Positions 1 to 13,551 of a stretch of DNA of 13,551 nucleotides are shown piece after piece (the first letter of the stretch is position 1; the number at the start of each line of letters is the position of its first letter). The position numbers and the translations under genes are program-made. A model generated the notes under the pieces. That model did no database searches and was not told where the DNA came from. It saw only the letters and a list, made by a program, of their open reading frames with translations. This stretch comes from a virus. The stretch lies in the IMG/VR virus record IMGVR_UViG_3300012949_000081; one strand, 5' to 3'.

Positions 1-121
1 GTCCAGCTTTAAGGCTTTTGCTGCTAAAATCATGTATCCAATAGCCGCCGCGTTTGTCATACCGTCCATGTTTTCACTCCTTTTTTACTTTAATGTTTAC
101 TTGCATTTTATTATAATATTA
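1..121. repeat. Terminal direct repeat copy A (circularisation overlap)
   Basis: Base-for-base identical to 13431-13551. Contains the first 69 nt of the 54-aa ORF plus its RBS and the conserved box. Confidence 0.95.
87..101 (-). promoter_or_regulatory. Conserved box ACTTTAATGTTTACT (copy 1; duplicated at 13517-13531)
   Basis: 15-mer identical to 964-978 and 14/15 identical to 7559-7573. Lies between the predicted -10 (110-115) and the RBS of the 54-aa ORF. Confidence 0.6.
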
Positions 122-139
122 TTACCTGTTTAGTGTCAA
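110..139 (-). promoter_or_regulatory. Sigma-70/SigA-like promoter of the par-rep operon
   Basis: Minus strand reads TTGACA (139-134), then a 17-18 nt spacer, then TTATAAT (116-110). Sits immediately downstream of the terminator at 142-182. Confidence 0.5.
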
Positions 140-141
140 GT

Positions 142-182
142 AAAAAATAAGGCGGTCAAGGTTTAATTATCCCTGGCCGCCT
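142..182 (-). terminator. Rho-independent terminator after the 107-aa gene
   Basis: Minus-strand hairpin AGGCGGCCAGGG / CCTTGACCGCCT (150-182, one mismatch and one wobble), followed by TATTTTTT (149-142). Confidence 0.6.
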
Positions 183-188
183 GTTTCT

Positions 189-512
189 TTAATATCCTCT
201 TTTTAGCCGCCGCATTATAACGCTTGGCGCGTCCAGCTGCGTTTTATAAGTTATCATGCGTACGTCTGTATTGTAGTCTTTAGCAAGGCCTATTTTCTTA
301 AATTCTTCAAGGACTGTCATAATACCGGCCGCCGCTTCTGTTATGTCTGTGGCTTCTGGATATACAAAGTATTTGCCTTCCGCATATACCACAACGGCAT
401 ATGTAGAAAATGGGTTATCCGGCTCTATCGGAAAGGCAAATATAGTACCGCCCAACTGTTCCCTTATGGCTTTGGCTGTTTCAATGGCTTGTTGCTTTGT
501 CTGTTTCTTCAT
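189..512 (-). CDS. Hypothetical protein (107 aa from the ATG at 512; the track ORF extends to 533)
   Basis: Long ORF on the coding strand. RBS GGGGGA lies 9 nt upstream of the ATG at 512 (MKKQTKQQ...). No motif I recognise. Overlaps the upstream gene by 32 nt. Confidence 0.6.
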   Translation of the reverse strand: MKKQTKQQAIETAKAIREQLGGTIFAFPIEPDNPFSTYAVVVYAEGKYFVYPEATDITEAAAGIMTVLEEFKKIGLAKDYNTDVRMITYKTQLDAPSVIMRRLKRGY

Positions 513-927
513 TTCTCTTTTCCCCCGTTTCAATAGCCCTTTTTAATATTTCTTGGGTTGCAATGATATAATCAAAGGCCATATCTACAAAGTTAAATAT
601 CAAGTCATACTCCAAAAACCATTTATAAGACTGTTTCCCATGCTCTTTTTCTTTTTCGTCGTCCTGGTTCTGGCTCGGTACCTGGCTGCCCCATCTTATA
701 GCTGCTCTCGGGTCTGGCTTATCTGCAAAGCCATACTCTTGTGTCCAATAGCTTAACAAGGTATCAGCCTTTTCTAACTTAATAAGAGCGTCCTCAATGG
801 CTGTACGCGTTTCAAACAATTCATGTTTTAAGGCTTTTTCCGTAACGTTTGCTGCCGTTACTTCGTTTACCCCGTTTATACCGCTTACAACGTTTATCAT
901 GCTTACTGCGTTTACCATTTTGTTCAT
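481..927 (-). CDS. Hypothetical 148-aa protein with an N-terminal x-[V/I]-[N/S] tripeptide repeat
   Basis: ORF on the coding strand with a weak RBS (GTGGGG, 7 nt before the ATG). The first ~27 codons are encoded by the 9-bp phased array at 847-918. No recognisable domain. Confidence 0.55.
   Translation of the reverse strand: MNKMVNAVSMINVVSGINGVNEVTAANVTEKALKHELFETRTAIEDALIKLEKADTLLSYWTQEYGFADKPDPRAAIRWGSQVPSQNQDDEKEKEHGKQSYKWFLEYDLIFNFVDMAFDYIIATQEILKRAIETGEKRNEETDKATSH
847..918. repeat. Eight tandem 9-bp units with G[C/T]TTA[C/T] core (plus-strand orientation)
   Basis: Units: gtttgctgc, cgttacttc, gtttacccc, gtttatacc, gcttacaac, gtttatcat, gcttactgc, gtttaccat, starting at 847, 856, 865, 874, 883, 892, 901 and 910. 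The last six are strong and the first two degenerate. Confidence 0.8.
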
Positions 928-963
928 GTAAATACCCCACTTTCTAAAATGTTTTTTGGTGAT

Positions 964-978
964 ACTTTAATGTTTACT
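964..978 (-). promoter_or_regulatory. Conserved box ACTTTAATGTTTACT (copy 2)
   Basis: Identical 15-mer to 87-101. Lies 37 nt upstream of the ATG at 927 and downstream of the predicted -10. Flanked by GGTGA/TCACC inverted repeats. Confidence 0.6.
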
Positions 979-991
979 CACCGTTTAATGA

Positions 992-1022
992 TATATTACA
1001 CCATGATTATTATATTTGTCAA
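992..1022 (-). promoter_or_regulatory. Sigma-70-like promoter of the 148-aa/107-aa cassette
   Basis: Minus strand reads TTGACA (1022-1017), an 18-nt spacer, then TAATAT (998-993), with TG immediately upstream of the -10. Confidence 0.45.
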
Positions 1023-1032
1023 GTAGTTTTTT

Positions 1033-1059
1033 GTAAATAAAATAAACATAGTAAACATA
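1033..1059. repeat. Three tandem 9-bp units gtaaataaa / ataaacata / gtaaacata
   Basis: Same [G/A]TAAA[C/T] core and 9-bp phase as the large arrays. Sits between terminator 1068-1095 and promoter 992-1022. Confidence 0.5.
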
Positions 1060-1067
1060 AAAAGTCG

Positions 1068-1095
1068 AAAAAAGAAAAACGGCCAATATGGCCGC
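1068..1095 (-). terminator. Rho-independent terminator after the head-closure gene
   Basis: Minus-strand hairpin CGGCCA-TAT-TGGCCG (1094-1080), followed by TTTTTCTTTTTT (1079-1068). Confidence 0.6.
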
Positions 1096-1121
1096 TCTTG
1101 TATTATAACTGTGGGCTTATA

Positions 1122-1466
1122 TCAATGTATCGGCGGCTTGTCTTCATAGCCACCTGTTGCATATATTTTTATGTCGCCCTTGTAGCCTTCAAAGGTATCA
1201 ATCCGGATAATGTTAAAATATCGGTTCTTGTATTTAATAATCATGTCTGTTGTTATATCGTTGCGCCAATTTATTATAAATAACATTTCTTCCTCGGCTT
1301 GTACGGCTTTGGCTGCATAATATTCCCTGGCCGATAAATGCCTTACATAAGCCCACAACTTACCTTCATGTATCGGCGTCCATTCATAGCGTGGCATATT
1401 GCCCGGTTCTGCAACGTTGCGGCCTTCTAAAATCTCAATTTTCTTATCCTTAAGCAATTTACCCAT
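1122..1466 (-). CDS. Phage head-closure / head-tail joining protein (SPP1 gp16 / HK97 gp10-like)
   Basis: Size and sequence pattern are typical of the head-tail joining family (WAYVRHLSAREYYAAKAVQAEEEMLFIINWRNDIT...YFNIIRID). RBS AAGGAG lies 8 nt before the ATG at 1466. The track start at 1490 lies inside the terL 3' end and has no RBS. Confidence 0.7.
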   Translation of the reverse strand: MGKLLKDKKIEILEGRNVAEPGNMPRYEWTPIHEGKLWAYVRHLSAREYYAAKAVQAEEEMLFIINWRNDITTDMIIKYKNRYFNIIRIDTFEGYKGDIKIYATGGYEDKPPIH

Positions 1467-1479
1467 CTTATCAACTCCT

Positions 1480-3123
1480 TTATAAAGCATTTAAAAACTC
1501 GTTATAATGCTCATATAAGCCCACATAGGCGTTTAATAGGCTTGCTGTACCATCTATACGCATTTTTGCGCTCTGCGCCTTTATGGGTACAATATTGCCG
1601 TTTCTGTCGGTCTGTACGCCGGTATTGGTTAAGCACCATTTGAGAATAGGGTTGTTATTATAATTTATCTTCTTGGCCTGGAGATCCGCTCCCAACATCT
1701 GCATAGGTAAGCTTAAGGTCTTGGCTCCCTGTATGCAGCGCACCATCTTAAAGCCGTAATTCTCCATTTCTTCAACCCAATACTTGGCGCTATAACTGTC
1801 GTAATATATCCATAAAGGCGTTATGCCCTTCTCGTTTACCATCTCCAAAAACCAGGCCGTAACGTCGCCGTAATTGATTGAATTGCCGTTACAAAGTCTT
1901 ATTAAGCCCTGTTCAAGCCATTTATCGTATGGTATTTTTTCCTCTGTTACGCGCTTCTCAAAGTTATCCCGCGGCAGCCAATACATTTGATATACAAAGC
2001 GTTCCTCTGTTTCTTTGTCCATCATCAAGAGCGTTGCGCAAGTTAAGTCTGTGGTAATACTTAAATCAGCGCCGCCTATGGCATAGCAATTCTTAAACCT
2101 GGCAATGTCAAAGGTTTTCTCATTGTTTATATCATCAAAGGAAAGCCATGCGCTGCTAATGGTATCTCTTATATTGAAGTCCTTTACCAATATGCCGTTA
2201 AGGTCTTTCGGGCTGTTCTTGGCTCTCTCAACCTTGTTCATAAGGTCGTCCAGCTTCTTAATCGTGCCTAAACCCGGATTTGCTTTTTCCCAGGCCTTCG
2301 GGTCTTTCCATTCTTCCCGGTTATCCAGCTCATAGATTATGGGTAAAAATGTATCGTCCTGGAATGTACCATCAACAACGTTGCAGGCGTAAGAATACAT
2401 ATCATCAAATATGCACTCTCTGACGGTTCCGGCCGTTGTAATCATTACAAGTAAAGGCTGCCGTCTGGCGCTCTGGCTTTGTTTCATAACTTCGTAAAGG
2501 TTCCGGTCTTTTATGCTGTGCAGCTCGTCAATGATAACACAATGAGCATTTAGGCCGTCCAGGGTATCGCTGTTCTTTCCTAAAGGCTGAAATTTGCTCA
2601 TAGTCAAAGGAAAATATAAATCACTCTTGCGCTTCTTTATGTACCGGTTAATATCCGGACTTTGCTTTACCATGTTATGGGTTTCATCAAACACAATGCG
2701 CGCCTGGTCTTTCTTTGTGGCCACACTGTAAACTTCTGCGCCTGGCTCATTGTCTGCAATCATCATATAAAGAGCAATACCGGCAAGCATGGTACTTTTA
2801 CCATTCTTACGGCCTACCATGAACAACGTTTCCCGGTACTTTCTTAAGCCTGTTTCCTCATGGACAAACCCAAATAAGGCGGATATATAAGCCTTCTGGA
2901 ATAGTTCCAGCTTAACTGGCTTTCCCGCCCATTCGCCTTTAGAGTGCTTACAGAATTGTTCTATAAAGCGTATAGGCTTGGTTGCACGGCTCTCGTCGAA
3001 TATATACCCGCCCTTTGGGTTCTTTATGTCATCAACAAGCTTCTCGTACTGCTTCCTTACCCTTGTGGAAACAATACAAGAGCCGTTGCAAATTTCGTTA
3101 TAATACTGCTCAATGTAATTCAC
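1480..3123 (-). CDS. terL: Terminase large subunit
   Basis: Walker A GRKNGKST, Walker B VIIDELH, and the nuclease-domain aspartate motif GGADLSITTD. 547 aa. GTG start preceded by AAGGCGGTGA. Confidence 0.95.
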   Translation of the reverse strand: MNYIEQYYNEICNGSCIVSTRVRKQYEKLVDDIKNPKGGYIFDESRATKPIRFIEQFCKHSKGEWAGKPVKLELFQKAYISALFGFVHEETGLRKYRETLFMVGRKNGKSTMLAGIALYMMIADNEPGAEVYSVATKKDQARIVFDETHNMVKQSPDINRYIKKRKSDLYFPLTMSKFQPLGKNSDTLDGLNAHCVIIDELHSIKDRNLYEVMKQSQSARRQPLLVMITTAGTVRECIFDDMYSYACNVVDGTFQDDTFLPIIYELDNREEWKDPKAWEKANPGLGTIKKLDDLMNKVERAKNSPKDLNGILVKDFNIRDTISSAWLSFDDINNEKTFDIARFKNCYAIGGADLSITTDLTCATLLMMDKETEERFVYQMYWLPRDNFEKRVTEEKIPYDKWLEQGLIRLCNGNSINYGDVTAWFLEMVNEKGITPLWIYYDSYSAKYWVEEMENYGFKMVRCIQGAKTLSLPMQMLGADLQAKKINYNNNPILKWCLTNTGVQTDRNGNIVPIKAQSAKMRIDGTASLLNAYVGLYEHYNEFLNAL

Positions 3124-3135
3124 CGTATCACCGCC

Positions 3136-3486
3136 TTAATTAGCTTTTATAAACTCGTATAAGGCGTTTTCTTTAACCTCTGGCATTGCAGCTTTAGGCA
3201 ATAGGTCTGTAAGCTGTTTATAAAGCAGGCTGTATCTTTGTACTGTGGTATTATAGGCCTTCAATGCCGGGCTTTCTCTCATAAATTCCTGTTTACCCTG
3301 CTTGAATAGCTCAACGGTTCCATGTTCTTCAATCTGTTCCTTAAGGTCATTGAGCGTTTTATACATGAATAGCAGCTCATTTATGAGCTTTTCACCTATC
3401 GCCTTCCTATCTTCCGGTATCTGCTTCAATATCTTGTTAAGTTGTCGTTTGGTTTTCAAAAATTCTTTATCTTGGCTTAAATCCAT
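3136..3486 (-). CDS. terS: Terminase small subunit (P27-like family)
   Basis: 116-aa helical protein immediately upstream of terL and downstream of an HNH gene. Sequence resembles P27-family small terminases (ALKAYNTTVQRYSLLYKQL). Confidence 0.75.
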   Translation of the reverse strand: MDLSQDKEFLKTKRQLNKILKQIPEDRKAIGEKLINELLFMYKTLNDLKEQIEEHGTVELFKQGKQEFMRESPALKAYNTTVQRYSLLYKQLTDLLPKAAMPEVKENALYEFIKAN

Positions 3487-3516
3487 CTATTTCACCGCCT
3501 TATTACTTGCTGTTTA

Positions 3517-3528
3517 TTTAATGTTTAC
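3517..3528 (-). promoter_or_regulatory. Conserved box TTTAATGTTTAC (copy 3, 12-nt core only)
   Basis: Core identical to the other three boxes. Lies 31 nt upstream of the terS ATG. No convincing -35/-10 seen upstream. Confidence 0.45.
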
Positions 3529-3548
3529 CCCTCCCTCGTATATGTCCT

Positions 3549-3604
3549 GGAGAGAGGAAAAGAAAGGTACCCGCGCCGGTTACGCGCCCCGCGAAAAATT
3601 TTTC
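3549..3604. other. Candidate cos / terminase recognition region
   Basis: Lies in the HNH-terS intergenic region. Contains a 19-nt pure-purine run (3549-3567) and a locally very GC-rich segment (3566-3593) with CGCGCC repeated 11 bp apart (3572, 3583). Also has the perfect 12-bp palindrome GAAAAATTTTTC (3593-3604). Confidence 0.35.
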
Positions 3605-3899
3605 AAGGCCGGGGGGATTTGATTAAATTTCCGTTGCTGTCGAAGGCCAAACCTTCTGCACAAACTTCCGCGCTGCTGTGTTCTTTGTTATGGCAATCCT
3701 GGCATAATGCTTCAAGGTTACTCCAATTCAAGGTTATATTGACGTCATGTATGTTTTGCGGCGTTATATAAGTTTTATGGTGGACTATGCGCGCCGGTTT
3801 CCCACAACGTTCACATATATAATGCTTACTTGCCATGTATGCCGCTTGTGTATCTCTCCAGGCCTTGCTATTATAGAAGTCCTTTGCATAGTCCTTCAT
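3603..3899 (-). CDS. HNH endonuclease (packaging-associated)
   Basis: Zinc/HNH motifs CERCG...IVHHK...LEALCQDCHNKEH. 98 aa, directly upstream of cos/terS as in HK97-like cos phages. Confidence 0.9.
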   Translation of the reverse strand: MKDYAKDFYNSKAWRDTQAAYMASKHYICERCGKPARIVHHKTYITPQNIHDVNITLNWSNLEALCQDCHNKEHSSAEVCAEGLAFDSNGNLIKSPRP

Positions 3900-3903
3900 A
3901 ACC

Positions 3904-4176
3904 TCAACCCCTGGCCTTTACGGTAAGAGCTTTAAGCAAACTGTCAATAGTCCTTTGCAGCTTCTCGCTGTCTGTCTGCTCTGCGTTATACCACAACTGC
4001 AATATAAACTTTGCTGCTGTCTTGGCTAATGGCTCCTGCTCCTGTTGTTCCTTTGTCATGCCGGTTGTTACTTCAATGTATCCTGGTATAGCTTCAAGCA
4101 AAGAAGCAATTATAATGTCGTTGTCGTAGCCGTCTAACCTTAAAAACTCTCTGGCTTCTGATATATTTAAAATCAT
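3904..4176 (-). CDS. gp6-like head-tail connector (adaptor) protein
   Basis: 90 aa. N-terminus ISEAREFLRLDGYDNDIIIASLLEAIPGYIE is typical of the gp6-like connector family. Located just after the capsid gene. Confidence 0.75.
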   Translation of the reverse strand: MILNISEAREFLRLDGYDNDIIIASLLEAIPGYIEVTTGMTKEQQEQEPLAKTAAKFILQLWYNAEQTDSEKLQRTIDSLLKALTVKARG

Positions 4177-4201
4177 GTTATCACCCCTTTATTTAAGTAA
4201 A

Positions 4202-4226
4202 GGGTATTGGCATTAACCCAATACCC
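4202..4226 (-). terminator. Perfect 9-bp stem hairpin after the capsid gene (possible attenuator)
   Basis: GGGTATTGG, 7-nt loop, CCAATACCC. On the minus strand it is followed by TTTACTTAAAT, only a partial U-tract. Confidence 0.35.
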
Positions 4227-4249
4227 CCTACTCCAATCAATAGGCCTTA

Positions 4250-5491
4250 TTATTCAGCTGCTTCATGCAGCTTTACAAAGGCCTCGGTAACTATCGGCTT
4301 ACAGTCAGCTATTGCCAAAGCTCTGTAATCAATCAAGCCGCTTCTAAAGCTGCTTTCCCTGGATACTTCGATTACAATACCTTCTGCAAGGTTGTAGCCC
4401 ATGTAATTGAAGTTACCCAGGTAAATATCACCGTCGGCAATATTATCATCAATTACAACCTCGCGGCCTAAAATGTAGCCTATGCTTTCGTTCTTCGGGT
4501 CAGCTATGAATATAGGCCGTTTATTCTGGTCTACAACGCCGTAAACGTGAGTGTAAAGGGTTGCGTTATTCATAGCCCATTTAGCGCCCTGGCTGTATCC
4601 TCTCTTAAGCAATGCCATTGTAGCCACAAAGTCTTTATATTCCGGCTTGGATCCGTTGGCATATTCAACGGCGTTTTTGTTATCTCCAGTTGCTGTCCAG
4701 GTAATGCTTTCAAGGCCTGTTCCCTGTCCTTCACCGGTACCGTTAACCAAAGCGTCGGCAATACATTCCATAACGCAAGCGTTCAGCTCGTCAATAAGGT
4801 ATTGCTCAAAGGCGTCAATGCTCATTCTCTTTGCAGCTGCGCTGATAGAGAATACTTTGAGAATTTCATATCCGTTAAAGGATACGGTTGCAACGGTGTT
4901 CTTTTCGCTTTCAACCTTTGCGCCTTCTGTATGCCAACTTGCTTTGTTGGCCGGTGTTCCTACGGGTACGGCTATCTTTGTGGGTAAATTAAAGCTTCTG
5001 CATACTGAAATCAAGCCGCCCATCTTACGCGCCTTGCTTATAACTTCGTTCAAGGTCGTTGTCGGCAATACTGCGGCTGCACTCGTTACGGTGTTAAACT
5101 GGTCTGCCCTTCTTTCGGCCTTTACAATGTCCATAGCGCGCTTAAAGGCTGCTTCCTCAACGGAAGTAAGCTCTTTGCCTAAAAGCTGTTTGAAAAATGC
5201 GCTCCTGTATTCTGCGCTTGCGAATATGTCGCCCTCTCTGGCTTCATAGCTGCCATTGTTTACAAAGCTTGCGCCGGTAATAGGGTTAAACTGCTGTCCG
5301 GGTTTCTGGCTTCTCTGTTCAATGTTTTCCTTTGCCTGCTTCAAGCCTTCCAGTTCGATATTAAGGCTTGCAATGTCGGCGTTCGGGTCTGTATCCACAA
5401 CCTGTTTGATTTCCTTTGCTCTTTTCTCGATTTCCTCAATAGAGCTGTTCATGTAATGGTTAAATGCTTCTGCAATATTCTTAAACTTCAT
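4250..5491 (-). CDS. Major capsid protein, HK97 fold, with N-terminal delta (scaffold) domain
   Basis: 413 aa. Coiled-coil N-terminus (about 100 aa) followed by an HK97-family-like body. Directly follows the prohead protease. Confidence 0.9.
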   Translation of the reverse strand: MKFKNIAEAFNHYMNSSIEEIEKRAKEIKQVVDTDPNADIASLNIELEGLKQAKENIEQRSQKPGQQFNPITGASFVNNGSYEAREGDIFASAEYRSAFFKQLLGKELTSVEEAAFKRAMDIVKAERRADQFNTVTSAAAVLPTTTLNEVISKARKMGGLISVCRSFNLPTKIAVPVGTPANKASWHTEGAKVESEKNTVATVSFNGYEILKVFSISAAAKRMSIDAFEQYLIDELNACVMECIADALVNGTGEGQGTGLESITWTATGDNKNAVEYANGSKPEYKDFVATMALLKRGYSQGAKWAMNNATLYTHVYGVVDQNKRPIFIADPKNESIGYILGREVVIDDNIADGDIYLGNFNYMGYNLAEGIVIEVSRESSFRSGLIDYRALAIADCKPIVTEAFVKLHEAAE

Positions 5492-5497
5492 AGTAAT

Positions 5498-6067
5498 TCA
5501 TACCCCTTTCATCAATATTTGGTTAATTCTGATTTTTGCGGCCGCTCTTAAAGGGTCGTCTTTTATTCCCTTCATGGCCGCCCTGGCTTCAACGCTTGTT
5601 TGCGGATACGCCGGGAATGGTACTATTGAAATCTCATAGATTTTCTCAATTTTGAGAATTTCCCGCGTATTCGTGGCTGCGTCGTATCTGTCGCCGCCTT
5701 CCGGTACCTTAAAAGCAAAGCTCATGCCGGTTAAATCGCCGCGTTTTACTGCCGTATAAACGCTTTTGGCTTCCTCTGTATCCGGCAACTTTGCAACCAT
5801 CTTAAGGCCTGCCGCATCCTTAATCAGCTGCATTGTTTTAGGCGTCCTTGCTAAAGGTACCTTGCTTAAATCATGGTTGTATAAAAGTCTTGTGTCGCTT
5901 ATGTCTGCTTCGTCTAAAGCTCCACTTCTGATAATTTCGATATACTGCCCTGCCGGGTCGTTTATCGTTGTGGGCTGGTCGTAAACAATCGGCCTGCCCT
6001 CTAATATAAGGCCGCCTTCGCCTGCCGGTTCTGCGGCTCTTATTTCGCAAACCCTAATTTCCTTCAT
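5498..6067 (-). CDS. HK97-family prohead maturation protease
   Basis: 189 aa. Motifs LEGRPIVYDQP, YNHD (His) and GMSFAF (Ser). ATGA overlap with the portal stop. Confidence 0.9.
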   Translation of the reverse strand: MKEIRVCEIRAAEPAGEGGLILEGRPIVYDQPTTINDPAGQYIEIIRSGALDEADISDTRLLYNHDLSKVPLARTPKTMQLIKDAAGLKMVAKLPDTEEAKSVYTAVKRGDLTGMSFAFKVPEGGDRYDAATNTREILKIEKIYEISIVPFPAYPQTSVEARAAMKGIKDDPLRAAAKIRINQILMKGV

Positions 6068-7266: not shown

Positions 7267-7511
7267 CGTTCTTCATTCGTGAAGCCTGCCGCCCTTTCAC
7301 ATTCCTTTATGGCCTTTACAAGGTTGCTTTCCATCTTCTCCTTAAGTTCTGGCGCATAAACCGAATAATGGGTTATGTATCGCTCATTAAGGTAAACAAT
7401 ATCATCATTTACCCACACTGGAATAAATCCAGGTCTTGGCGGCGCTTCGTCGCATGATAATACATTTTGAAGTTTTTGCCCGTCTGTAAATTTAATGGTC
7501 TTATATACCAT
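7260..7511 (-). CDS. Hypothetical 83-aa protein, first gene of the head operon
   Basis: ORF on the coding strand with RBS GGGGAG. Translationally coupled to the portal gene. No recognised motif. Confidence 0.55.
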   Translation of the reverse strand: MVYKTIKFTDGQKLQNVLSCDEAPPRPGFIPVWVNDDIVYLNERYITHYSVYAPELKEKMESNLVKAIKECERAAGFTNEERW

Positions 7512-7548
7512 GTTCTCCCCTGCTTACTGTTACATTTTTACATCTATC

Positions 7549-7577
7549 ATTATAGCATACTTTAATGTTTACGTCAA
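7549..7577 (-). promoter_or_regulatory. Near-consensus promoter of the head operon with the conserved box (7559-7573) in its spacer
   Basis: Minus strand reads TTGACG (7577-7572), exactly 17 nt, then TATAAT (7554-7549). The spacer contains GTAAACATTAAAGT. A second TATAAT at 7587-7582 lies 9 nt upstream of the box, the same spacing as at 110-115 versus 87-101. Confidence 0.6.
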
Positions 7578-7624
7578 GTTTATTATATGATTATCAGAAT
7601 TACTTTGTTTATTGTTTTTACTTG

Positions 7625-7651
7625 GTAAACATAGTAATAAAAATAAACGCA
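7625..7651. repeat. Three tandem 9-bp units gtaaacata / gtaataaaa / ataaacgca
   Basis: Same core and phase as 1033-1059 (shared AAACATAGTAA). Partly overlaps the terminator U-tract. Confidence 0.4.
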
Positions 7652-7671
7652 AGGCGTCTTTATGCCCTGCG
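7634..7671 (-). terminator. Rho-independent terminator
   Basis: Minus-strand hairpin CGCAGGGC-ATAAAGAC-GCCTTGCG (7671-7648, one G-U pair), followed by TTTATTTTTATT. Confidence 0.6.
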
Positions 7672-7725
7672 TTCCTGTTTTGAATTTCACATATCTTATC
7701 TTGTGTTAAACTGGCTAATATGCCG
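7640..7725 (-). ncRNA. Candidate small RNA of about 85 nt (orphan promoter to terminator)
   Basis: An extended -10 promoter at 7732-7740 fires toward the terminator at 7634-7671. There is no RBS-preceded ORF between them. Confidence 0.3.
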
Positions 7726-7731
7726 CAATCC

Positions 7732-7764
7732 ATTATAACATAGGCTTTTTAACAATTTTGTTAA
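7732..7764 (-). promoter_or_regulatory. Extended -10 promoter (TGTTATAAT) with an upstream 16-bp palindrome
   Basis: Minus strand reads TGTTATAAT (7740-7732). The palindrome TTAACAA-nn-TTGTTAA at 7749-7764 covers the -35 region. No good -35 hexamer. Confidence 0.35.
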
Positions 7765-7785
7765 AATGGGTTTAACATACCCCCA

Positions 7786-8325
7786 TTATGTTAAATTGAG
7801 ATTTTTTAATTTATCCTCATGCGTTCTTATAGCGTTCCGTATCCTCTCCTTTGCCCCTGGCTCTTTCTCTTTCTCATAAGCCGCCTTAAGTCTGTTTAAC
7901 CGCTCCTGTACTTCGTTGCGTTCAATCTCTATGGCCGCCGGTTCTCCTAAAACGCCGTAAATGGTCTGTAAATTCGCCTTATTTGCCTCATAAAAGAGCT
8001 TATCCCCGGTCATAAGGCTTATACATTCAATAGCCTTCAATAAGAGCTTATAAATGGGTTCTCCGGCCTGTACGCCCTTATTTATATCTGCTCTTAATTG
8101 CCCCGCTTTCTTTATATTGTCCTGTTGTTCTTTATAGGTTGCCGTTAAACGCTCTAAAAGGCCTTCTATGACGTCATTTTTATTCGTTAATGTTTTTATA
8201 TTACCCCTTGCCTTTTCGTCGCTTGTAGGCCGTTTTTGCACGTCATTTTTAAGCAACTTTTCAATTTCTGCCTGTGTTGCCTGGTTCTGCTCTATTGCGT
8301 ACCGCTTTAACGCTTCTAAAGCCAT
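7786..8325 (-). CDS. Hypothetical 179-aa, predominantly helical/coiled-coil protein
   Basis: ORF on the coding strand. RBS AAGGAAG overlaps the primase-helicase stop. Charged, heptad-like composition with no recognised motif. Confidence 0.6.
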   Translation of the reverse strand: MALEALKRYAIEQNQATQAEIEKLLKNDVQKRPTSDEKARGNIKTLTNKNDVIEGLLERLTATYKEQQDNIKKAGQLRADINKGVQAGEPIYKLLLKAIECISLMTGDKLFYEANKANLQTIYGVLGEPAAIEIERNEVQERLNRLKAAYEKEKEPGAKERIRNAIRTHEDKLKNLNLT

Positions 8326-8329
8326 CTAA

Positions 8330-10246
8330 TCACTTCCTTTTACCGTTGCCTTTGGGAATGTCGAAATCCTCGGCAACTTTATAAAGGTTATCTGGCTCAA
8401 ACAAGTCAAAGCGCGGGTCATACTTAAATCCACACGAATAAGAGCTTATGCCGTACCGGTTTTTAAGGCATACAAGTTCAATTTCTCGCGGTATGGCTTT
8501 CTTTGCCTGGCGTACTTTCTCCCGTTTCTCTTTTATTTTCTTCTCCTGGTTGAATAGGTCGTCATTAAGTATTTGCAGCTGCAAACCCCAAACAACGTCG
8601 GCCGTATATTCAATACCGCCGCTTTCCTTAAAGCTCTCAAAGTCAATAGGTGTTAAATAATTCTGCCGGTTTATGCTGCTTACAACGAATAAAACTAAAT
8701 CATTCTCGCTTTGCAGCTTTTTAAGCCCTCTTATAATGTTGTCTATTTTTTCTTTATCGGTCTGGCGCGGATCCGTCGGCGGTATAATCTGCAAATAGTC
8801 AACTATAACAACCGGCTTTACTTTGAAGGCTTCTATATAGGCTTTTGTGTACTCAATAATAGAATAAACATTGACGTCAAAGTTACATTCAATAATGCTG
8901 ATATGGTCGGCTATCTTGTTATATTCTTCGGCGGCTGCTATTACTTCCGGGGTAAGTTTGCCGCCCCTTATTTTAATGGCGCTTACGGCCTTGTCCTTGT
9001 TCATTTTGGCCGTTATCCTGCTTAAGCTCTTGGTTACCATTTCAAGCCTGCTCTGCTCCAGGCTGAAAAATAATACATGGTCGCCCATAGCCGCCAACTG
9101 GTCGCCAATCTGATGAACAAAGGTTGTTTTTCCTAAACTGCTTATTGCACCCACAACATACAGGCCTGGATATAAGCCGCCGGTTAATTCGTCCAGGTTA
9201 TCAAAGCCGGTTTTGCGGTCTTTGAAGCTCTTAAACTTCTCAATGTCCTTTATGAAAACATCTTCTAAATACTGGCTTACAATGTTTTTGCTAAAATCTA
9301 TTTGCGGCGTCTGTTCATTCTGGTATAATGTTTCTGTGTTACTATTTTGTTCGGTAATACTTTTATTAACGGCTCCTTGCGTTGCTGCGCTTGGGGCTAT
9401 CCTTTCATATGGGGTAAAATTATTTAAGGCCTTTTTGATTGTCATATTGCCGTATGTATCCGGGCCATGTCTTTTATCCCATTTTTCCGGTCTGTATAAA
9501 GCTGATTGTCTGAATAACGCGTCCATTCGGTAAGCGTTGCCATTTGTCCAGTATGCTAATAAATTGCATAGTGCTAAATCTGCTTCGGACTGTGAAGGAT
9601 AGCCGCTTATATCTCCGTTCCATAACGCCCGGAATATATGGCCGTTCTTTGCACTCATGGCCTTATTTATAAGTTCGCTGTCCGATAGGTCAAGGTCGGC
9701 CGGCTGCCTTGTGGTTTTTGGCTCCTCTCTTTTCAAATATTTTTCGTGAACGGCCGCCGCCTGGGCTGTCCGCTCCTGTACTTCCTTTGGCTCCCCTAAT
9801 ACATTACCGGTCATTGTAAAAAATCGGCCTTCTGAATACATTTCAATATTTCCTTTACGCCTGTCCTTTGGCGGTATCGTGCCTTTGCAAATAATGTGTA
9901 CGCCGGTACCGCTTGGGCTGTATTCTGTGTAACTGTCCAAAGTTTTTATAATGTCCTCGGCTTCCGGTGTAAGCTTCCCATCTTTAACAACGCCGTCCAG
10001 GTCTACGCCAAAAATACCGTTTGCAAACTCAAAGCCTATGCCATCAAAGCCGTACTTGCCGACGGCCTTAACCGCCGTTTGGTAATCGCTCCAGGTTGTC
10101 GGGTCGTTTGCCTTTGCGTTATAGCCGGTTTTTGGGTCTTTCGGTATTTTGTCATATTTGCCCTTTTTCTCGTTGTACTCCAACTTAAAGCAAACCCATT
10201 GCTTAAGCTGCTTCAAGCTGGCCGGAATGTTTTTGTATTGCTCCAT
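8330..10246 (-). CDS. Bifunctional primase-polymerase (PrimPol) fused to a DnaB-like helicase domain
   Basis: N-terminal PrimPol motifs GVDLDG, SPSGTGVHIICKG and IEMYSEGRFFTMTG. Central primase C-terminal-like helical region SQSEADLALCNLLAYWT...LFRQSALYRPEKWDK. C-terminal DnaB_C-like Walker A GAISSLGKTT, then FFSLEQS, then Walker B VVIVDYLQ. Confidence 0.9.
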   Translation of the reverse strand: MEQYKNIPASLKQLKQWVCFKLEYNEKKGKYDKIPKDPKTGYNAKANDPTTWSDYQTAVKAVGKYGFDGIGFEFANGIFGVDLDGVVKDGKLTPEAEDIIKTLDSYTEYSPSGTGVHIICKGTIPPKDRRKGNIEMYSEGRFFTMTGNVLGEPKEVQERTAQAAAVHEKYLKREEPKTTRQPADLDLSDSELINKAMSAKNGHIFRALWNGDISGYPSQSEADLALCNLLAYWTNGNAYRMDALFRQSALYRPEKWDKRHGPDTYGNMTIKKALNNFTPYERIAPSAATQGAVNKSITEQNSNTETLYQNEQTPQIDFSKNIVSQYLEDVFIKDIEKFKSFKDRKTGFDNLDELTGGLYPGLYVVGAISSLGKTTFVHQIGDQLAAMGDHVLFFSLEQSRLEMVTKSLSRITAKMNKDKAVSAIKIRGGKLTPEVIAAAEEYNKIADHISIIECNFDVNVYSIIEYTKAYIEAFKVKPVVIVDYLQIIPPTDPRQTDKEKIDNIIRGLKKLQSENDLVLFVVSSINRQNYLTPIDFESFKESGGIEYTADVVWGLQLQILNDDLFNQEKKIKEKREKVRQAKKAIPREIELVCLKNRYGISSYSCGFKYDPRFDLFEPDNLYKVAEDFDIPKGNGKRK

Positions 10247-10312
10247 TTTCTCATCTCCCTTTTTGTATCCACATGGGGTATATTTCTTTATTCTTTAAGC
10301 CCATAATATTAA

Positions 10313-10349
10313 GGCGGCGCGGCGGCGTCAAACAAGCCGCTGCCGCCGC
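10313..10349. other. GC-only imperfect hairpin in the origin region
   Basis: GGCGGCGCGGCGGC, loop gtcaaacaa, GCCGCTGCCGCCGC: about 8 bp of G/C pairing with one wobble. No adjacent U-tract on either strand, so it is not a typical terminator. Confidence 0.4.
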
Positions 10350-10380
10350 TATAAAGCTTATATAGCTTATAAAGCTTATA
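10350..10380. repeat. AT-rich segment with three 9-bp phased GCTTAT units
   Basis: GCTTAT at 10356, 10365 and 10374 (ataaagctta tatagcttat aaagcttata). The core fits the G[C/T]TTA[C/T] consensus of the 847-918 array. Possible DNA-unwinding element. Confidence 0.5.
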
Positions 10381-10447
10381 CAATTTTACGGCAAACTCTG
10401 GAAGGCTTGTCTTTACTGGGTTTAATGGCATTTTTTACTCTTTTTAT

Positions 10448-10535
10448 CGTTACCACTTTCTGCCCCATGCGTTACCACTTTCTGCCCCATGCGTTACCAC
10501 TTTCTGCCCCATGCGTTACCACTTTCTGCCCCATG
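10448..10535. repeat. Four perfect tandem 22-bp iterons (cgttaccactttctgccccatg): candidate replication origin
   Basis: Identical units at 10448, 10470, 10492 and 10514. They abut the stop codon (10537-10539) of the 459-aa gene and lie upstream of the primase-helicase gene. Confidence 0.8.
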
Positions 10536-10536
10536 C

Positions 10537-11916
10537 TTATAATCTAATGGTAACACTATAAATTTCTTGGCCGCGTTTATTTTCACAATAACCGGCAATA
10601 AATTTTTCTTGCTTCCAGTAGTCTAATATCCGTCTTATTTGTTCACGTATTTTTGCTTTTTTCTTCCTTAAAGCTCCAGGACTTGCTGCTTTAATTTCAA
10701 GCTGCTTGTATAAGGTATCATACACAACGGTTTTACTCATATTGCTGTTGCTGTTTTTCATGGAAAGGATACGGCGGTATAGATAGCCTTGAAGCGTTAT
10801 GATTTCCTCTGTCTTATTGATAGGCGTATTGAGCAATTTAATATCAAACCGGCCTATCTGGTTCTTTTTGCTGGCGTATTCATATAAAACCGGCTCTCTT
10901 AAAATATGCAAACATTCAAGAACATTACCGTTTAATGTTGCTGTAACTCTTTCACCGCTTATAAGGCTTCCGTCATATTTGAAGCTTTCAAAGCCGTAAG
11001 CTTTGGCTTCCTCGCTTGCGTCAATAATGACGCGGCTATATAAGCATTTTGTTATGCTCTCACTAATAGCTTCGGCTTGTTTTTTTTCAAGGTAAGCGTC
11101 CGGGTTTCCTGTCATTACCTGGTATATCATTTGCGGCGTTATGTACTCATTGCCCCCATCAACATATAATGTTATAATGGCGTCATGTACTTCCCTATCA
11201 TAAGGGGTAAGCTCTTTACGTCCTTTTATCTGTACGGCTCCGTTAAGTTTTTCATAGTCAATGCTGGCAATGGTTGTAATCTGTTTTTTACTTTTCCTTT
11301 GGTTTTCCATTGCTAAACTATGAAGTTCAGGGCCCATAATTTGGCCGGTAAAAGCATAGTAACTTACTTTGTCTGTTGATGTTATGAAATTATCCGGGTA
11401 CTTGGTACGGACTGAATTTTCAATAATTCTTTCTAACTCTTTAGGCTCTTGTATGCTTTGCTTAAAACTGGCTGAAAACTTTTCAAGTAAGGCCGGCAAT
11501 TCTTTTTCTAAATACCGCCTAAATCTTAAGGTTTTTTCTCTGATGAATTGGCTTGAATAGTCTTTATAGTCCGGCCATACTTTGGCTTTTTGTTCGTCGG
11601 TTGCTTTCGGATCCATGAAGGCATTAACAAACTCAATATAATAATTTATCTGTTCTTCCAGTACCTTTATGGGGTTTTCCTGGAAGGCTTGCATAAACTC
11701 TTTCCATTCAGCTATTGCTTCCTCGTTTTGACGGTCTAATGCTTCCTCTGAAGGAAAGCCATCTTTTTCAAAGTAAGCTTCACGCGCTGCCGCGACTTCT
11801 GGCGTAAACATAGGCGGCGCTTTTTTCTTATAAGCTTCAAGCTCCGCTTCCATTTCTGCCGTCCAGGGGTACCGTCTGCATATATCTTTAATCTTTTTAT
11901 TCTCCACCTGCTTCAC
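10537..11916 (-). CDS. Putative iteron-binding replication initiator (459 aa); function assigned by position only
   Basis: Long ORF with a GTG start (11916, or 11907 with better RBS spacing). The C-terminal half has a winged-helix-like character (TPYDREVHDAIITLYVDGGNEYITPQMIYQVM; LRKKKAKIREQIRRILDYWKQEKFIAGY). Iterons lie immediately 3' of the gene. Confidence 0.45.
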   Translation of the reverse strand: MKQVENKKIKDICRRYPWTAEMEAELEAYKKKAPPMFTPEVAAAREAYFEKDGFPSEEALDRQNEEAIAEWKEFMQAFQENPIKVLEEQINYYIEFVNAFMDPKATDEQKAKVWPDYKDYSSQFIREKTLRFRRYLEKELPALLEKFSASFKQSIQEPKELERIIENSVRTKYPDNFITSTDKVSYYAFTGQIMGPELHSLAMENQRKSKKQITTIASIDYEKLNGAVQIKGRKELTPYDREVHDAIITLYVDGGNEYITPQMIYQVMTGNPDAYLEKKQAEAISESITKCLYSRVIIDASEEAKAYGFESFKYDGSLISGERVTATLNGNVLECLHILREPVLYEYASKKNQIGRFDIKLLNTPINKTEEIITLQGYLYRRILSMKNSNSNMSKTVVYDTLYKQLEIKAASPGALRKKKAKIREQIRRILDYWKQEKFIAGYCENKRGQEIYSVTIRL

Positions 11917-11931
11917 CTTCCTTTCACTTTT

Positions 11932-12003
11932 GTAAACACAATAAGCAATGTAAACAAGGTAACCACAGTAAACATTGTAAACTGTGTAAACATGGTAAAC
12001 ATT
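11932..12003. repeat. Eight tandem 9-bp units with [G/A]TAA[A/G/C]C core: candidate centromere/operator array
   Basis: Units: gtaaacaca, ataagcaat, gtaaacaag, gtaaccaca, gtaaacatt, gtaaactgt, gtaaacatg, gtaaacatt, starting at 11932, 11941, 11950, 11959, 11968, 11977, 11986 and 11995. Orientation is opposite to the 847-918 array. Confidence 0.85.
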
Positions 12004-12203
12004 TATTTATCCTTACCCTTGTCATTGTCAATGCCTAAAAGGTACTCTCTCATAGCTTCCTCTGTAACATACCAGCGCGTACCAAACTTACGGGCTTTTA
12101 TGCGGCCTTCTTTGAAAAACTTTCTTATGCTCTGCGGCGTCATATCAAAGATTTTGGCTATTTCCTGCACATCGTAAAATTTGATGTCGCCTATCTGCTT
12201 CAT
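12003..12203 (-). CDS. Excisionase/AlpA-type (MerR-like) helix-turn-helix DNA-binding protein
   Basis: 66 aa. YDVQEIAKIFDMTPQSIRKFFKEGRIKARKFGTRWYV matches the excisionase-family HTH pattern. The start overlaps the RHH gene stop (TAATG). Confidence 0.75.
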   Translation of the reverse strand: MKQIGDIKFYDVQEIAKIFDMTPQSIRKFFKEGRIKARKFGTRWYVTEEAMREYLLGIDNDKGKDK

Positions 12204-12535
12204 TACTTATCCTTCCTTTCTATAATCTCTTTACCGTCCAAAAACTCGGCAATCATTTTGTTTACAACGTCCTTCAAGGTTTCTCTTTCGGTGTATGCGT
12301 AATCTTTGAGTTTTTCTAATAAATCTTCTCTTACAATGAAGGTTGCGCGCGTGTAGCCTTCCCTTAAACCTTCCTGGCTTGTCTTTTCATATTCCCGGTA
12401 TATAGTGCGCGGCCTTCCCATGTTACTTCTGGGTACCTGTGGTAACCCTTGTTCCTCTTGTTGTTCCGGCTCCGGTTGTTCAAAAAACTTGCTTACCGCT
12501 TGGTCGCCTAAACCTTCAATTTTCTTCTTACTCAT
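12203..12535 (-). CDS. Ribbon-helix-helix protein, probable ParA partner (ParG/omega-like centromere binder)
   Basis: 110 aa. Disordered acidic/basic N-terminus, then a strand-helix-helix pattern RATFIVREDLLEKLKDYAYTERETLKDVVNKMIAEFL. Immediately downstream of parA. Confidence 0.65.
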   Translation of the reverse strand: MSKKKIEGLGDQAVSKFFEQPEPEQQEEQGLPQVPRSNMGRPRTIYREYEKTSQEGLREGYTRATFIVREDLLEKLKDYAYTERETLKDVVNKMIAEFLDGKEIIERKDK

Positions 12536-12540
12536 GTTTT

Positions 12541-13293
12541 TTACTTACCTCCCTTAATAATTTCAGCTGTCAAAGCATTATAGCCCGCGGCCGTCGGTGA
12601 TACTGGCGCATAGGTTAAAATATCCGTCTGATTTGCCTGGGCTTCTCTTGTCGCCACACTTGCCCTTATAAAGGTTTGAAATACTTTTGTATTCATTCGC
12701 TTTGCTGCGGCCTTTGCCGCTTTTTCAAACTCTCTGCTTAAAAGGGTTCTGTTGTTATGCTGCGTAAACAATAAGCCTTCAATTTTTAGGCCTGGGTTAC
12801 TATGACGCCTTACGGCTTCTATGGTAGAATATAATTGGCTTAACCCTTGCAGGCTTAATACGTCTGCTGATAATGGAATAATAACGCTGTCGGCAGCTGT
12901 TAAGGCGTTTATGGTTAATATCCCTAATGACGGCGGGGTATCAATCAAAACATAATCATAGCCGTTCTTAACGGCTTCTACTTTGTTCCTTAATAGCTCC
13001 GGCCGCTTAATTTCCATATCGGCACCGCTCAAAAGAATGTTGGCCGGTATAATATGGCCGCTCTTGGTTTGCTGCAAAGCGTTTTTAATGCTTACCTTGT
13101 CGTTCAATACTTCATATACTGTGGGCTTATTTACGCTATCTGCGCCGGCAATAAAAGATAAATTGCCTTGCGGATCCAGGTCAATCATTAAAACCCTATA
13201 TTCCTTATAGGTCAATGACGCGGCCACATTATGGGCTGTTGTCGTCTTGCCTACGCCGCCCTTTTGGTTGGCTATTGCTATAACCCTGGGCAT
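12541..13293 (-). CDS. parA: ParA/Soj-family partition ATPase
   Basis: Deviant Walker A IANQKGGVGKTTT at the N-terminus, then LMIDLDPQGN, then Walker B VLIDTPPSLG. 250 aa. Confidence 0.95.
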   Translation of the reverse strand: MPRVIAIANQKGGVGKTTTAHNVAASLTYKEYRVLMIDLDPQGNLSFIAGADSVNKPTVYEVLNDKVSIKNALQQTKSGHIIPANILLSGADMEIKRPELLRNKVEAVKNGYDYVLIDTPPSLGILTINALTAADSVIIPLSADVLSLQGLSQLYSTIEAVRRHSNPGLKIEGLLFTQHNNRTLLSREFEKAAKAAAKRMNTKVFQTFIRASVATREAQANQTDILTYAPVSPTAAGYNALTAEIIKGGK

Positions 13294-13334
13294 GGTTCCA
13301 CCCCTTTCTAATCTTTTTCTGTTAAAACGCCATC

Positions 13335-13499
13335 TTAATAAAAGCTGTTATATGCTTCTTCCGCTTCTTCCTCGGTTCTCATGTCCATAAAATACTTCAT
13401 GTTGCTTTCCAGCTGCTTTATGGTTTCCTTGTCCAGCTTTAAGGCTTTTGCTGCTAAAATCATGTATCCAATAGCCGCCGCGTTTGTCATACCGTCCAT
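13335..13499 (-). CDS. Hypothetical 54-aa protein, first gene of the par operon (not in the ORF track)
   Basis: My translation: MDGMTNAAAIGYMILAAKALKLDKETIKQLESNMKYFMDMRTEEEAEEAYNSFY. Strong RBS (AAAGGAGTGAAAAC-ATG). Stop TAA at 13335-13337, 41 nt upstream of the parA start. Below the track length cutoff. Confidence 0.45.
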   Translation of the reverse strand: MDGMTNAAAIGYMILAAKALKLDKETIKQLESNMKYFMDMRTEEEAEEAYNSFY

Positions 13500-13551
13500 G
13501 TTTTCACTCCTTTTTTACTTTAATGTTTACTTGCATTTTATTATAATATTA
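13431..13551. repeat. Terminal direct repeat copy B (circularisation overlap)
   Basis: Identical to 1-121. The repeat boundary at 13431 falls inside the ORF 13335-13499, so it is not a natural element end. Confidence 0.95.

Follow-up and report, generated by a model that had tools for sequence, protein, structure and literature searches.

Can an element that encodes a complete phage head, and nothing of a phage tail, be inherited as a plasmid instead of residing in the chromosome? This question is raised by the IMG/VR virus record IMGVR_UViG_3300012949_000081, a stretch of 13,551 bp (41.9% GC) that we analysed over its whole length and call here the window. We think, with a probability that we would put at roughly three in four, that it is a satellite that depends on a helper, builds heads only and is maintained as a plasmid, which would make it in Bacillota what the capsid-forming phage-inducible satellite-plasmids (cf-PISP) are in Vibrio. 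Its head module is shared with integrase-bearing islands of the type known as cf-PICIs (phage-inducible chromosomal islands that form capsids), and its replication initiator (Rep) and primase-helicase are shared with plasmids that carry no head genes, so that it looks like a cf-PICI head module on a plasmid backbone. A plasmid-maintained satellite was already the reading of the first-pass annotation of this DNA; the circle, the head set, the replicon and the lack of an integrase all stand, whereas helper dependence, small capsids and inducibility are what we infer from them.

The first 121 bases of the window (1..121, a feature of neither strand) are repeated exactly as its last (13431-13551), which is an assembler's signature of a circular or concatemeric unit of 13,430 bp. 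We recognise 18 credible genes, one more than the 17 proteins counted at first, and all of them lie on the minus strand, as do the other features below unless stated otherwise; the sign of GC and AT skew is constant along the whole window. In the direction of transcription the order is p54, ParA, a 110-residue protein, an HTH_17 protein (66 residues), Rep (459 residues), primase-helicase and u179, then u83, portal, protease, major capsid protein (MCP), the adaptor Ad1, HNH, TerS, TerL, the head closure protein Hc1, u148 and u114. The gene for p54 and its promoter run uninterrupted across the 13430/1 junction. A Logan assembly of another run (L001; 13,473 bp, its ends overlapping by k-1, here 30 bp) is 97.6% identical to the whole window, which means that the circle was assembled independently by another pipeline. 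Several relatives from IMG/VR and metagenomes also close on themselves, either through end overlaps (127 bp in L012, 99 bp in L016, 43 bp in L128, 23 bp in L134 and 90 bp in L135) or through inexact ones (658 bp at 93% identity in L025, 177 bp at 99% identity in L082), and relatives that are broken inside the primase-helicase, in parA or after Hc1 have an identical circular gene order. The exact capsid protein is present on ten public contigs, all of 20 kb or less. Thus the overlap, the circle and the one-strand layout described at the outset are borne out, and the L001 circle, the self-closing relatives and the short contigs with the exact capsid speak against the misassembly or larger prophage that had been envisaged as the main dangers to this view. 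Scans of the window with Rfam and for tRNAs gave no match, hence no clue to a tRNA-type attachment (att) site, and no att-type repeat was found in a repeat search of the window. The whole element has no megablast match among INPHARED phages or PLSDB plasmids.

The proteins of the window were scanned by profile hidden Markov models (HMMs) against Pfam, PHROGs, NCBIfam and PADLOC, and all eight head and packaging genes of cf-PICIs are matched by Pfam or PHROGs. They comprise the portal (6064..7266; PF04860 2e-60, phrog_12 2e-76), a prohead serine protease of the S78 family (5498..6067; PF04586, Peptidase_S78, 4e-33), an HK97-fold MCP (4250..5491; PF05065, Phage_capsid, 6e-33 over residues 140-408, and phrog_10 2e-50), the gp6-like head-tail adaptor Ad1 (3904..4176; phrog_40 3.5e-8), a packaging-associated HNH endonuclease (3603..3899; PF01844 9e-10 and PHROG HNH families), the small terminase TerS (3136..3486), the large terminase TerL (1480..3123; TerL_ATPase 1e-37, TerL_nuclease 3e-33, phrog_9 3.5e-166) and Hc1, the tail-docking end of the connector (1122..1490; PF05521, Phage_HCP, 6e-15, and phrog_25). 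The N-terminal extension of the capsid protein, about 130-140 residues outside the domain match, may by analogy be an HK97-style delta-domain. TerS is less well supported than the other head genes (phrog_2343 3e-6, phrog_1066 1e-32, and a Terminase_4 match of 2.7e-3 that falls below the cut-off), and its assignment leans also on its location, which fits, between HNH and TerL. The intergenic region between HNH and TerS (3487..3602), with a GC-rich segment, could be a cos site or a region that controls packaging.

In the same four libraries there were zero matches to tail, tape-measure, baseplate, endolysin, holin or integrase families. The HMM scans found no site-specific recombinase domain in any ORF (open reading frame) of the window, PADLOC found no defence genes, and a transmembrane-like segment is absent from every protein of the coding strand. 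Hydrophobic ORFs of the plus strand were considered as holins and rejected as an antisense artefact of a T-rich strand. The two halves of the original description, a full head and packaging set and nothing of tails, lysis or integration, have therefore both been confirmed, TerS less firmly than the rest; an integrase with att sites on the same molecule, which would have pointed to an island, was looked for in the window and not found.

What had been missed is the replication initiator. The original claim of an iteron origin with a primase-helicase is well founded, since it agrees with four perfect 22-bp repeats and with HMM matches, and these repeats, tandem copies of CGTTACCACTTTCTGCCCCATG on the plus strand (10448..10535; repeat search, a feature without strand), adjoin the stop codon of the gene for the 459-residue protein (10537..11916), directly after it. 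By sequence this protein has no family match in Pfam, PHROGs, NCBIfam or PDB. In an AlphaFold2 (AF2) model built on an alignment of 30 sequences (mean pLDDT 75) the N-terminus, which is variable, is helical, and the conserved C-terminus (about residues 210-459) forms two winged helices; the model is well defined over the C-terminal 250 residues. The 13 best Foldseek matches of this model in the PDB (E 7e-5 to 2e-2, probability at least 0.97) are RctB domains 2-3, RepE54, Pi and a Rep-DUE complex, all of them iteron-binding tandem winged-helix proteins; those to RctB, RepE54 and Pi have E values of 7e-5 to 5e-4 and a probability of 1.0. Because its predicted fold matches iteron-binding initiators, and because iterons adjoin its gene, we conclude from the model that this protein is an iteron-type replication initiator, Rep, predicted to bind these iterons. 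The N-terminal part of Rep, about 150 residues, is highly variable across the family, the winged-helix part being conserved, and gene callers disagree on its start (438, 459 or 494 residues; compare 10537-11916 in the window with 2478-3962 in L001).

After the iterons come an A-rich stretch, 9-bp repeats of TATAAGCTT, a GC hairpin and the start of the primase-helicase. The rest of the origin and the promoter region of that gene occupy 10303..10380, with 3.4 copies of TATAAGCTT (10350-10380), the GC-rich hairpin and a promoter-like site, TTGACG-17-TATTAT (10331..10303; consensus scan). A minus-strand ORF at 10309-10431 is spurious, its KLYKLYKLY peptide being the translated 9-bp origin repeat. 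The primase-helicase itself (8330..10246) is a fusion of a primase-polymerase with a DnaB-type helicase, 638 residues long (NrS1-1_pol-like_HBD 2.4e-26, DnaB_C 2.5e-29, phrog_1829 DNA primase 6e-102). The 9-bp repeat is kept in most relatives, and repeats of 22 bp, about four of them, stand at the equivalent position in every ParA-type relative, always adjoining rep. Relatives whose Rep is at least 59% identical have a common iteron core, GGGG.A.AA.TGGTAAC, and more divergent Reps (L013, L083, L086) are accompanied by unrelated 22-mers. An iteron sequence that tracks the divergence of Rep is the pattern expected of Rep-iteron pairs that co-evolve.

Rep and the primase-helicase also travel without a head. 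They are found together on head-less circular contigs (L153, 9.7 kb with a 127-bp overlap; L154, 15.3 kb with a 123-bp overlap), and related copies of both, again with no head genes, are on contigs of metagenome-assembled genomes (MAGs) of Oscillospiraceae and Fretibacterium (L098-L100). The Reps of all these plasmids and contigs are 34-65% identical to that of the window, and a remote homologue sits on a complete 52-kb plasmid of the cultured Anaerotruncus colihominis. The two genes thus seem to form one plasmid replicon that serves different cargoes, since they co-occur on head-less plasmids as well, and those head-less contigs appear to represent an uncharacterised family of plasmid replicons in anaerobes. 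The same co-occurrence disfavours the idea of two separate replicons, Rep for a plasmid mode and the primase-helicase for a lytic mode.

The operon transcribed ahead of Rep opens with partition genes. Its first gene encodes p54, a conserved protein of 54 residues (ORF call, 13335..13499; on the circle 69..1 + 13430..13335) that is 86-100% identical in relatives, and its second encodes ParA (12541..13293), a small Walker-type ATPase of 250 residues with the motif KGGVGKT (AAA_31 2e-56, phrog_164 9e-61, NCBIfam ParA_partition 6e-33). This ParA is without an N-terminal helix-turn-helix (HTH) domain, the AAA_31 match beginning at residue 3. The next gene (12203..12535) encodes a candidate centromere- or operator-binding protein of 110 residues, with a disordered N-terminus that contains an invariant GRPR motif and a strand-helix-helix C-terminus (AF2 helices 70-83 and 87-99). 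It matches phrog_3180 (Arc-like) at 4.7e-4 and, in hhalign, aligns in register with CopG and ParG (P about 1e-3, probability 17-23%); no match was obtained in Pfam (including 12 homologues), in a profile search of the PDB or by Foldseek on the AF2 model. Of the ParA-RHH (ribbon-helix-helix) operon originally proposed, ParA is therefore secure by its HMM matches and the RHH partner is weakly supported (the Arc-like match at 4.7e-4, an hhalign probability of about 20%). The fourth gene (12003..12203) encodes a protein of 66 residues of the HTH_17 type, related to AlpA, excisionases and MerR (PF12728 1.9e-10; PHROG excisionase and regulator families), a probable transcriptional regulator judging from these matches, with homologues at the equivalent place in integrase-type relatives.

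Consensus scans for sigma-70-like promoters, and for terminators as hairpins followed by T-runs, place strong promoters on the coding strand upstream of p54, the primase-helicase, u83 and u148. That of the p54-parA-RHH-HTH17 operon, P_par, has a perfect TTGACA-18-TATAAT (12/12; 110..139), and the late promoter is TTGACG-17-TGnTATAAT with an extended -10 (7577..7549); another promoter-like site, P_u148, lies at 1037..1009 within the region 963..1099. Terminator-like hairpins follow u179 (7674..7645) and Hc1 (1099..1075). Across these sites recurs a 12-mer, GTAAACATTAAA, in four exact copies, all in the coding orientation, against 0.24 expected: at 89-100 (= 13519-13530), just downstream of the -10 of P_par, at 966-977, downstream of P_u148, at 3517-3528, in the gap between HNH and TerS, and at 7561-7572, in the spacer of the late promoter. 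The 12-mer is kept exactly in close ParA-type relatives, including L025, whose synonymous sites are saturated, and no copy is present in integrase-type relatives or on plasmids without head genes. Because GTAAACATTAAA recurs at the partition, accessory and late promoters and upstream of terS, we propose a single shared regulator: one DNA-binding protein encoded by the element probably controls the partition, accessory and capsid operons jointly through this candidate operator. Such a layout of shared operators recalls omega of pSM19035.

A second set of repeats is built on the heptamer TGTTTAC, of which the element has 20 copies against 2.4 expected. Eight 9-bp repeats, ATGTTTACN on the coding strand, lie directly upstream of the ribosome-binding site of rep (11930..12003) and could be a centromere or a rep operator, equivalent arrays being present in relatives. 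Upstream of P_u148, at about 1058-1032, are three 9-bp repeats of the TGTTTAC type, and the first 21 or so codons of u148 hold eight 9-bp repeats in inverted form (GTAAAC, 864-918).

Relatives were gathered with the capsid and Rep as probes, and among them three backbones carry the same head-only string, portal-protease-MCP-Ad1-HNH-TerS-TerL-Hc1. The first is the ParA/Rep type of the window. The second consists of islands in which a primase is accompanied by a tyrosine integrase and a divergent repressor, the classic cf-PICI layout, several of them from isolate genomes; one such island (L102/L103) is inside a 90-kb chromosomal contig and is followed directly by thiamine-transport and pilus genes. 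The third consists of islands with a large serine recombinase. The MCP of the window is 57-68% identical to those of the second and third types. About 20 relatives are of the ParA type, with a shared architecture and sizes of 12.7-14.7 kb for complete or near-complete members, and they keep this architecture and size over MCP identities of 51-95%. In none of these roughly 20 relatives did tblastn with tyrosine integrase and serine recombinase representatives find a large integrase, and tail or lysis genes were likewise not found.

From gene content and from what experiments have established for cf-PICIs, the steps of transfer can be outlined as follows. Rep would bind the four 22-bp iterons and work with its dedicated primase-helicase to replicate the 13.4-kb circle, which ParA, its small DNA-binding partner and the 9-bp TGTTTAC arrays would partition. 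The late operon, from u83 and the portal to Hc1, would build a small HK97-type procapsid, probably T=4; HNH, TerS and TerL would cleave the DNA at a site of the cos type and package it in unit lengths, and Ad1 and Hc1 would close the head. The tail-less heads would then gain tails, and release by lysis, from a co-resident or environmental siphovirus, and the HTH_17 or RHH-like protein, acting at GTAAACATTAAA, would couple plasmid maintenance to capsid production. By analogy, what one would most economically expect is a head of T=4 size, packaged in unit lengths from cos, because members of 12.7-14.7 kb match EcCIEDL933 (15.5 kb, T=4); the first-pass annotation also offered multi-genome packaging in T=7 heads, which stands as the alternative.

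Several points weigh against regarding the element as a satellite-plasmid of this kind. A circular assembly by itself cannot tell a plasmid apart from a replicating form or a concatemer. The assignment of the partner of ParA to the RHH fold is weak. In appearance the late promoter is strong and constitutive, and a repressor like Stl or cI was not recognised, so that the term phage-inducible is unproven; six small proteins are unannotated, among which a very unusual lysis or recombination function could conceivably hide. Finally, a 34-kb contig from an ENA fermentation metagenome (L094) is joined, via an IS21-like insertion sequence (IS), to at least 18 kb of other DNA. Its first 8 kb (1-8000), and also L095, have the ParA-Rep-primase-portal backbone with this IS21-like insertion (rve + AAA_22); beyond the IS are sigma/anti-sigma and RelA_SpoT genes, and the contig ends inside a portal gene. 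A cointegrate, an integrated form of the element or a misjoin mediated by the IS may lie behind this junction.

The alternative that survives best, improbable as we think it is, takes the element for the decaying remnant of a phage-plasmid that has lost its tail and lysis genes and carries the others as dead phage cargo. It can point to the TerL and portal homologues in PLSDB, which among the matches listed are only on phage-plasmids or large plasmids of at least 31 kb, including phage-plasmids of Bacillus and Clostridioides, and to a sister clade whose head modules, about 90% identical, have tail genes next to them in some cases and not in others. This idea meets the difficulty that nothing here decays. 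In comparisons of the window with L012, L016 and L025 (dS 0.6 to >1.9) the ratio of nonsynonymous to synonymous substitutions (dN/dS) is 0.03-0.35 for every gene, unannotated ones included, so that the head and packaging genes, judged by these ratios, are functional and under purifying selection, strongly so and across lineages with saturated dS. There are no pseudogenes or tail fragments in the element, and its architecture and its size of 12.7-14.7 kb are kept over MCP identities of 51-95%. As for the contigs in which tail genes come directly after a head-only module (L037, L041, L045 and L104, the last a 33-kb contig, ENA ERZ18534058), in L104 (640-19510) the module ends in Hc1 and an integrase, and then come two BppU_N genes, a gp17 tail completion gene, a major tail protein and a tape measure; that of L041 ends in a sigma factor and u106, with head genes about 90% identical to those of the tail-less L047. 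These contigs could be satellites beside or inside helper prophages, or recent transitions between phage and satellite.

A shade less probable is that the window is the excised, replicating circle of an ordinary integrative cf-PICI or small prophage, sampled during induction. Induced islands also assemble as circles, the HTH_17 gene is excisionase-like, and close homologues of the head genes are in integrated islands. Yet neither the window nor the roughly 20 relatives have an integrase or an att-type repeat, a ParA operon and a Rep/iteron replicon stand in place of the integrase-repressor module, and the circle recurs in many unrelated samples. It should be mentioned that many relatives, of plasmid and of integrative type, have a tyrosine recombinase of about 181 residues, reduced to the catalytic domain, between HNH and TerS (L082, at 7598-8143, L083, L093, L124 and L128-L134; among the integrase types L020, L023, L028, L031 and L032). 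It is absent from the window, and could function in multimer resolution or in a process linked to packaging.

We give about the same low credit to an autonomous tail-less vehicle, akin to a gene transfer agent (GTA) or capsid-only, that would dispense with helper tails, or to a capsid in some role other than transfer. Spontaneous release of tail-less capsids by cf-PICIs, the seemingly constitutive late promoter and the lack of an identified helper are all in keeping with it. The search for a helper siphovirus suggested in the first-pass annotation, made through the closest homologues of Hc1, indeed identified no helper phage, and brought up only integrated head-only islands (L102/L103) and the ambiguous island-plus-tail contig L104. 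Against such a vehicle, the element keeps both of its tail-joining proteins, Ad1 and Hc1, under purifying selection, encodes no receptor-binding or lysis function, and diversifies Hc1 fastest among its head genes, as expected if Hc1 has to match changing tails. Indeed no head protein diverges more than Hc1, whose identity is 29-61% in most relatives that have a TerL 73-96% identical, and it also seems to be the head gene that recombines most. Of the 335 differences between the window and L001, most fall in two patches: one, 800-1400, covers Hc1 and the intergenic region downstream of it and looks like a recombination patch, and the second, 10400-12000, covers Rep with the iterons and the 9-bp array; the rest, some 10 kb, is almost identical. 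The swapping of Hc1 that these patterns suggest would fit a tail-dependent lifestyle, because adaptor and connector proteins set the usable tails in cf-PICIs, and the swapping of Rep together with its iterons may be what plasmid incompatibility would favour. Finally, a chimera of plasmid and prophage fragments, conceivable for a metagenomic contig whose 121-bp overlap is of a typical k-mer size, is effectively excluded, because independent assemblies give one circular order and its junctions are recovered by different assemblers, from different samples and with different breakpoints, at 51% to 99% identity.

The host of this element is most likely an anaerobic member of the Clostridia, because the named sources of homologues are anaerobic Firmicutes and anaerobic habitats: Eubacterium aggregans, Oscillospiraceae MAGs, a 'Firmicutes bacterium', and fermentation, bioreactor, sediment and human-gut metagenomes. 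There are at least 429 Rep homologues, the longest contigs are repeatedly of 13.3-14.6 kb, and dozens are of 13-14 kb. The sole link to a named host species is a 5.97-kb contig of Eubacterium aggregans (L097; NCBI GCA_051648865.1), in which the genes upstream of HTH_17, Rep (75% identical) and the primase-helicase are HTH_3 and DUF6291 and not those of ParA and the RHH-like protein. Cultured phages have no close capsid, the best MCP match being 32% identical.

The remaining genes are small. The conserved helical protein u179 (7786..8325; dN/dS 0.18), always located after the primase-helicase, has no match in Pfam, PHROGs, NCBIfam, PADLOC or PDB, and a minus-strand ORF at 7569-7733, which spans its terminator and the late promoter, is spurious. 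The first gene of the late operon, u83 (7260..7511), and the accessory genes u148 (481..927; dN/dS 0.35) and u114 (189..533; dN/dS 0.05-0.11) are ORF calls. The array at 864-918 inside the u148 ORF encodes a repetitive VN/VS peptide and the true start may lie downstream; u114 probably starts at an internal ATG, giving 107 residues, as called in L001.

We are inclined, with a confidence a little better than even, to go further and to see here an independently evolved and widespread lineage of satellite-plasmids in anaerobic Bacillota of digesters, fermentations and the gut, in which a cf-PICI head module has been grafted onto an iteron plasmid, Rep with its iterons and Hc1 are swapped, and one 12-mer operator spans the operons. 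On these terms the swaps of Rep and iterons would affect incompatibility and those of Hc1 the range of helpers. If this is true, the plasmid-satellite lifestyle is a recurrent evolutionary solution and not a curiosity of Vibrio, and a second, apparently unrelated lineage suggests that crossing a plasmid with a capsid-forming satellite is a strategy of general use. Such hybrids tend to be missed both by satellite finders based on integrases and by plasmid typers, and they may explain part of the small 'viral' circles and of the 'non-mobilizable' plasmids of anaerobic microbiomes. The family offers a compact Rep-iteron-primase replicon and a candidate global operator, and its natural swaps of Hc1 and Rep in otherwise identical genomes are material for the study of tail specificity and incompatibility.

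How does this element compare with known systems? Among plasmids and satellites that likewise combine some of its parts, phage-plasmids (P1, N15, and those of 31-55 kb in Bacillus and C. difficile) unite partition and replication genes with structural ones, but they make complete virions, with lysis, and are at least 2-3 times larger, whereas the window has heads only; its TerL and portal are at most 53% and 41% identical, respectively, to phage-plasmid homologues. Plasmid satellites without capsid genes (the plasmid form of P4, the inovirus satellite pDolos, Marinitoga pMP1) can also persist as plasmids, but they use the capsids or filament coats of a helper, whereas the window encodes its own capsid and terminase; a 2025 review of plasmids counted a single plasmid satellite, an inovirus satellite. 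With iteron theta plasmids (F RepE, R6K Pi, pPS10 RepA) and RctB of Vibrio chromosome 2 the element has in common a tandem winged-helix initiator, 22-bp iterons and A/T-rich repeats, and it differs from them in having no detectable similarity to the Rep_3 families and a primase-helicase of its own. As in type Ib partition (TP228 ParFG, pSM19035 delta/omega), a small ParA is followed by a small, predicted DNA-binding protein, and repeat arrays occur at several promoters. The heptad arrays of omega resemble the short-repeat arrays of the window.

By the published definition a cf-PICI measures 10-18 kb, has an integrase or recombinase, modules for replication and for regulation and the eight packaging genes, and is free of genes for tails and lysis. 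The window agrees in size, in the eight genes, in the lack of tail and lysis genes, in replication and in regulation (HTH_17), and departs from it in having neither an integrase nor chromosomal residence. The known cf-PICIs (EcCIEDL933, KpCIDSM30104 and those of Firmicutes) are integrase-bearing chromosomal islands, whereas the window has ParA and a Rep/iteron replicon instead; an AlpA-like HTH protein, a primase-type replication gene and an adaptor/connector as the variable part are common to both. In cf-PICIs the choice of usable phage tails lies with the adaptor and connector proteins, which form the variable region, tail-less capsids are released spontaneously, and EcCIEDL933 (15.5 kb), whose T=4 capsids measure 47.5 nm, packages its DNA from cos ends. 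The first-pass annotation was right to regard cf-PICIs as integrated, as SatelliteFinder places 966 of 969 in chromosomes; an extrachromosomal kind has nevertheless already been published, the cf-PISP of Vibrio (PMC13230959).

That kind was described in a study of Vibrio crassostreae (bioRxiv October 2025; Nat Commun April 2026; PMC13230959), in which TG54, an extrachromosomal circle of 15.8 kb, combines parA and repA with a cf-PICI head module and is without tails or an integrase. The authors name the type 'capsid-forming phage-inducible satellite-plasmids', and report relatives in Vibrio only. The likeness is close: a small circle (15.8 kb there, 13.4 kb here) with capsid, portal, protease, adaptor, closure, HNH and terminase genes, parA and rep, and neither tails nor integrase; and the lifestyle proposed there, inheritance as a plasmid and transfer in own capsids joined to helper tails, is the one that we favour here. 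The differences concern the host, which is inferred to be Bacillota/Clostridia and not Vibrio, and the replicon, since the window has a dual winged-helix Rep, four 22-bp iterons and a primase-helicase, and no ProQ/FinO-like or Stl-like regulator was detected in it. The Vibrio elements also have a small tyrosine recombinase in the head module, which the window is without and some of its relatives have, between HNH and TerS. No Vibrio record is among the listed PLSDB matches of TerL or portal. Because the head module of the window is nearest to integrative islands of Firmicutes (61-67% MCP identity), an origin independent of the Vibrio cf-PISP is likely, TG54 being compared by its description only. 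The category of satellite-plasmid is thus already established for Vibrio, and what this element would add to it is another phylum, another replicon and a large uncultured family.

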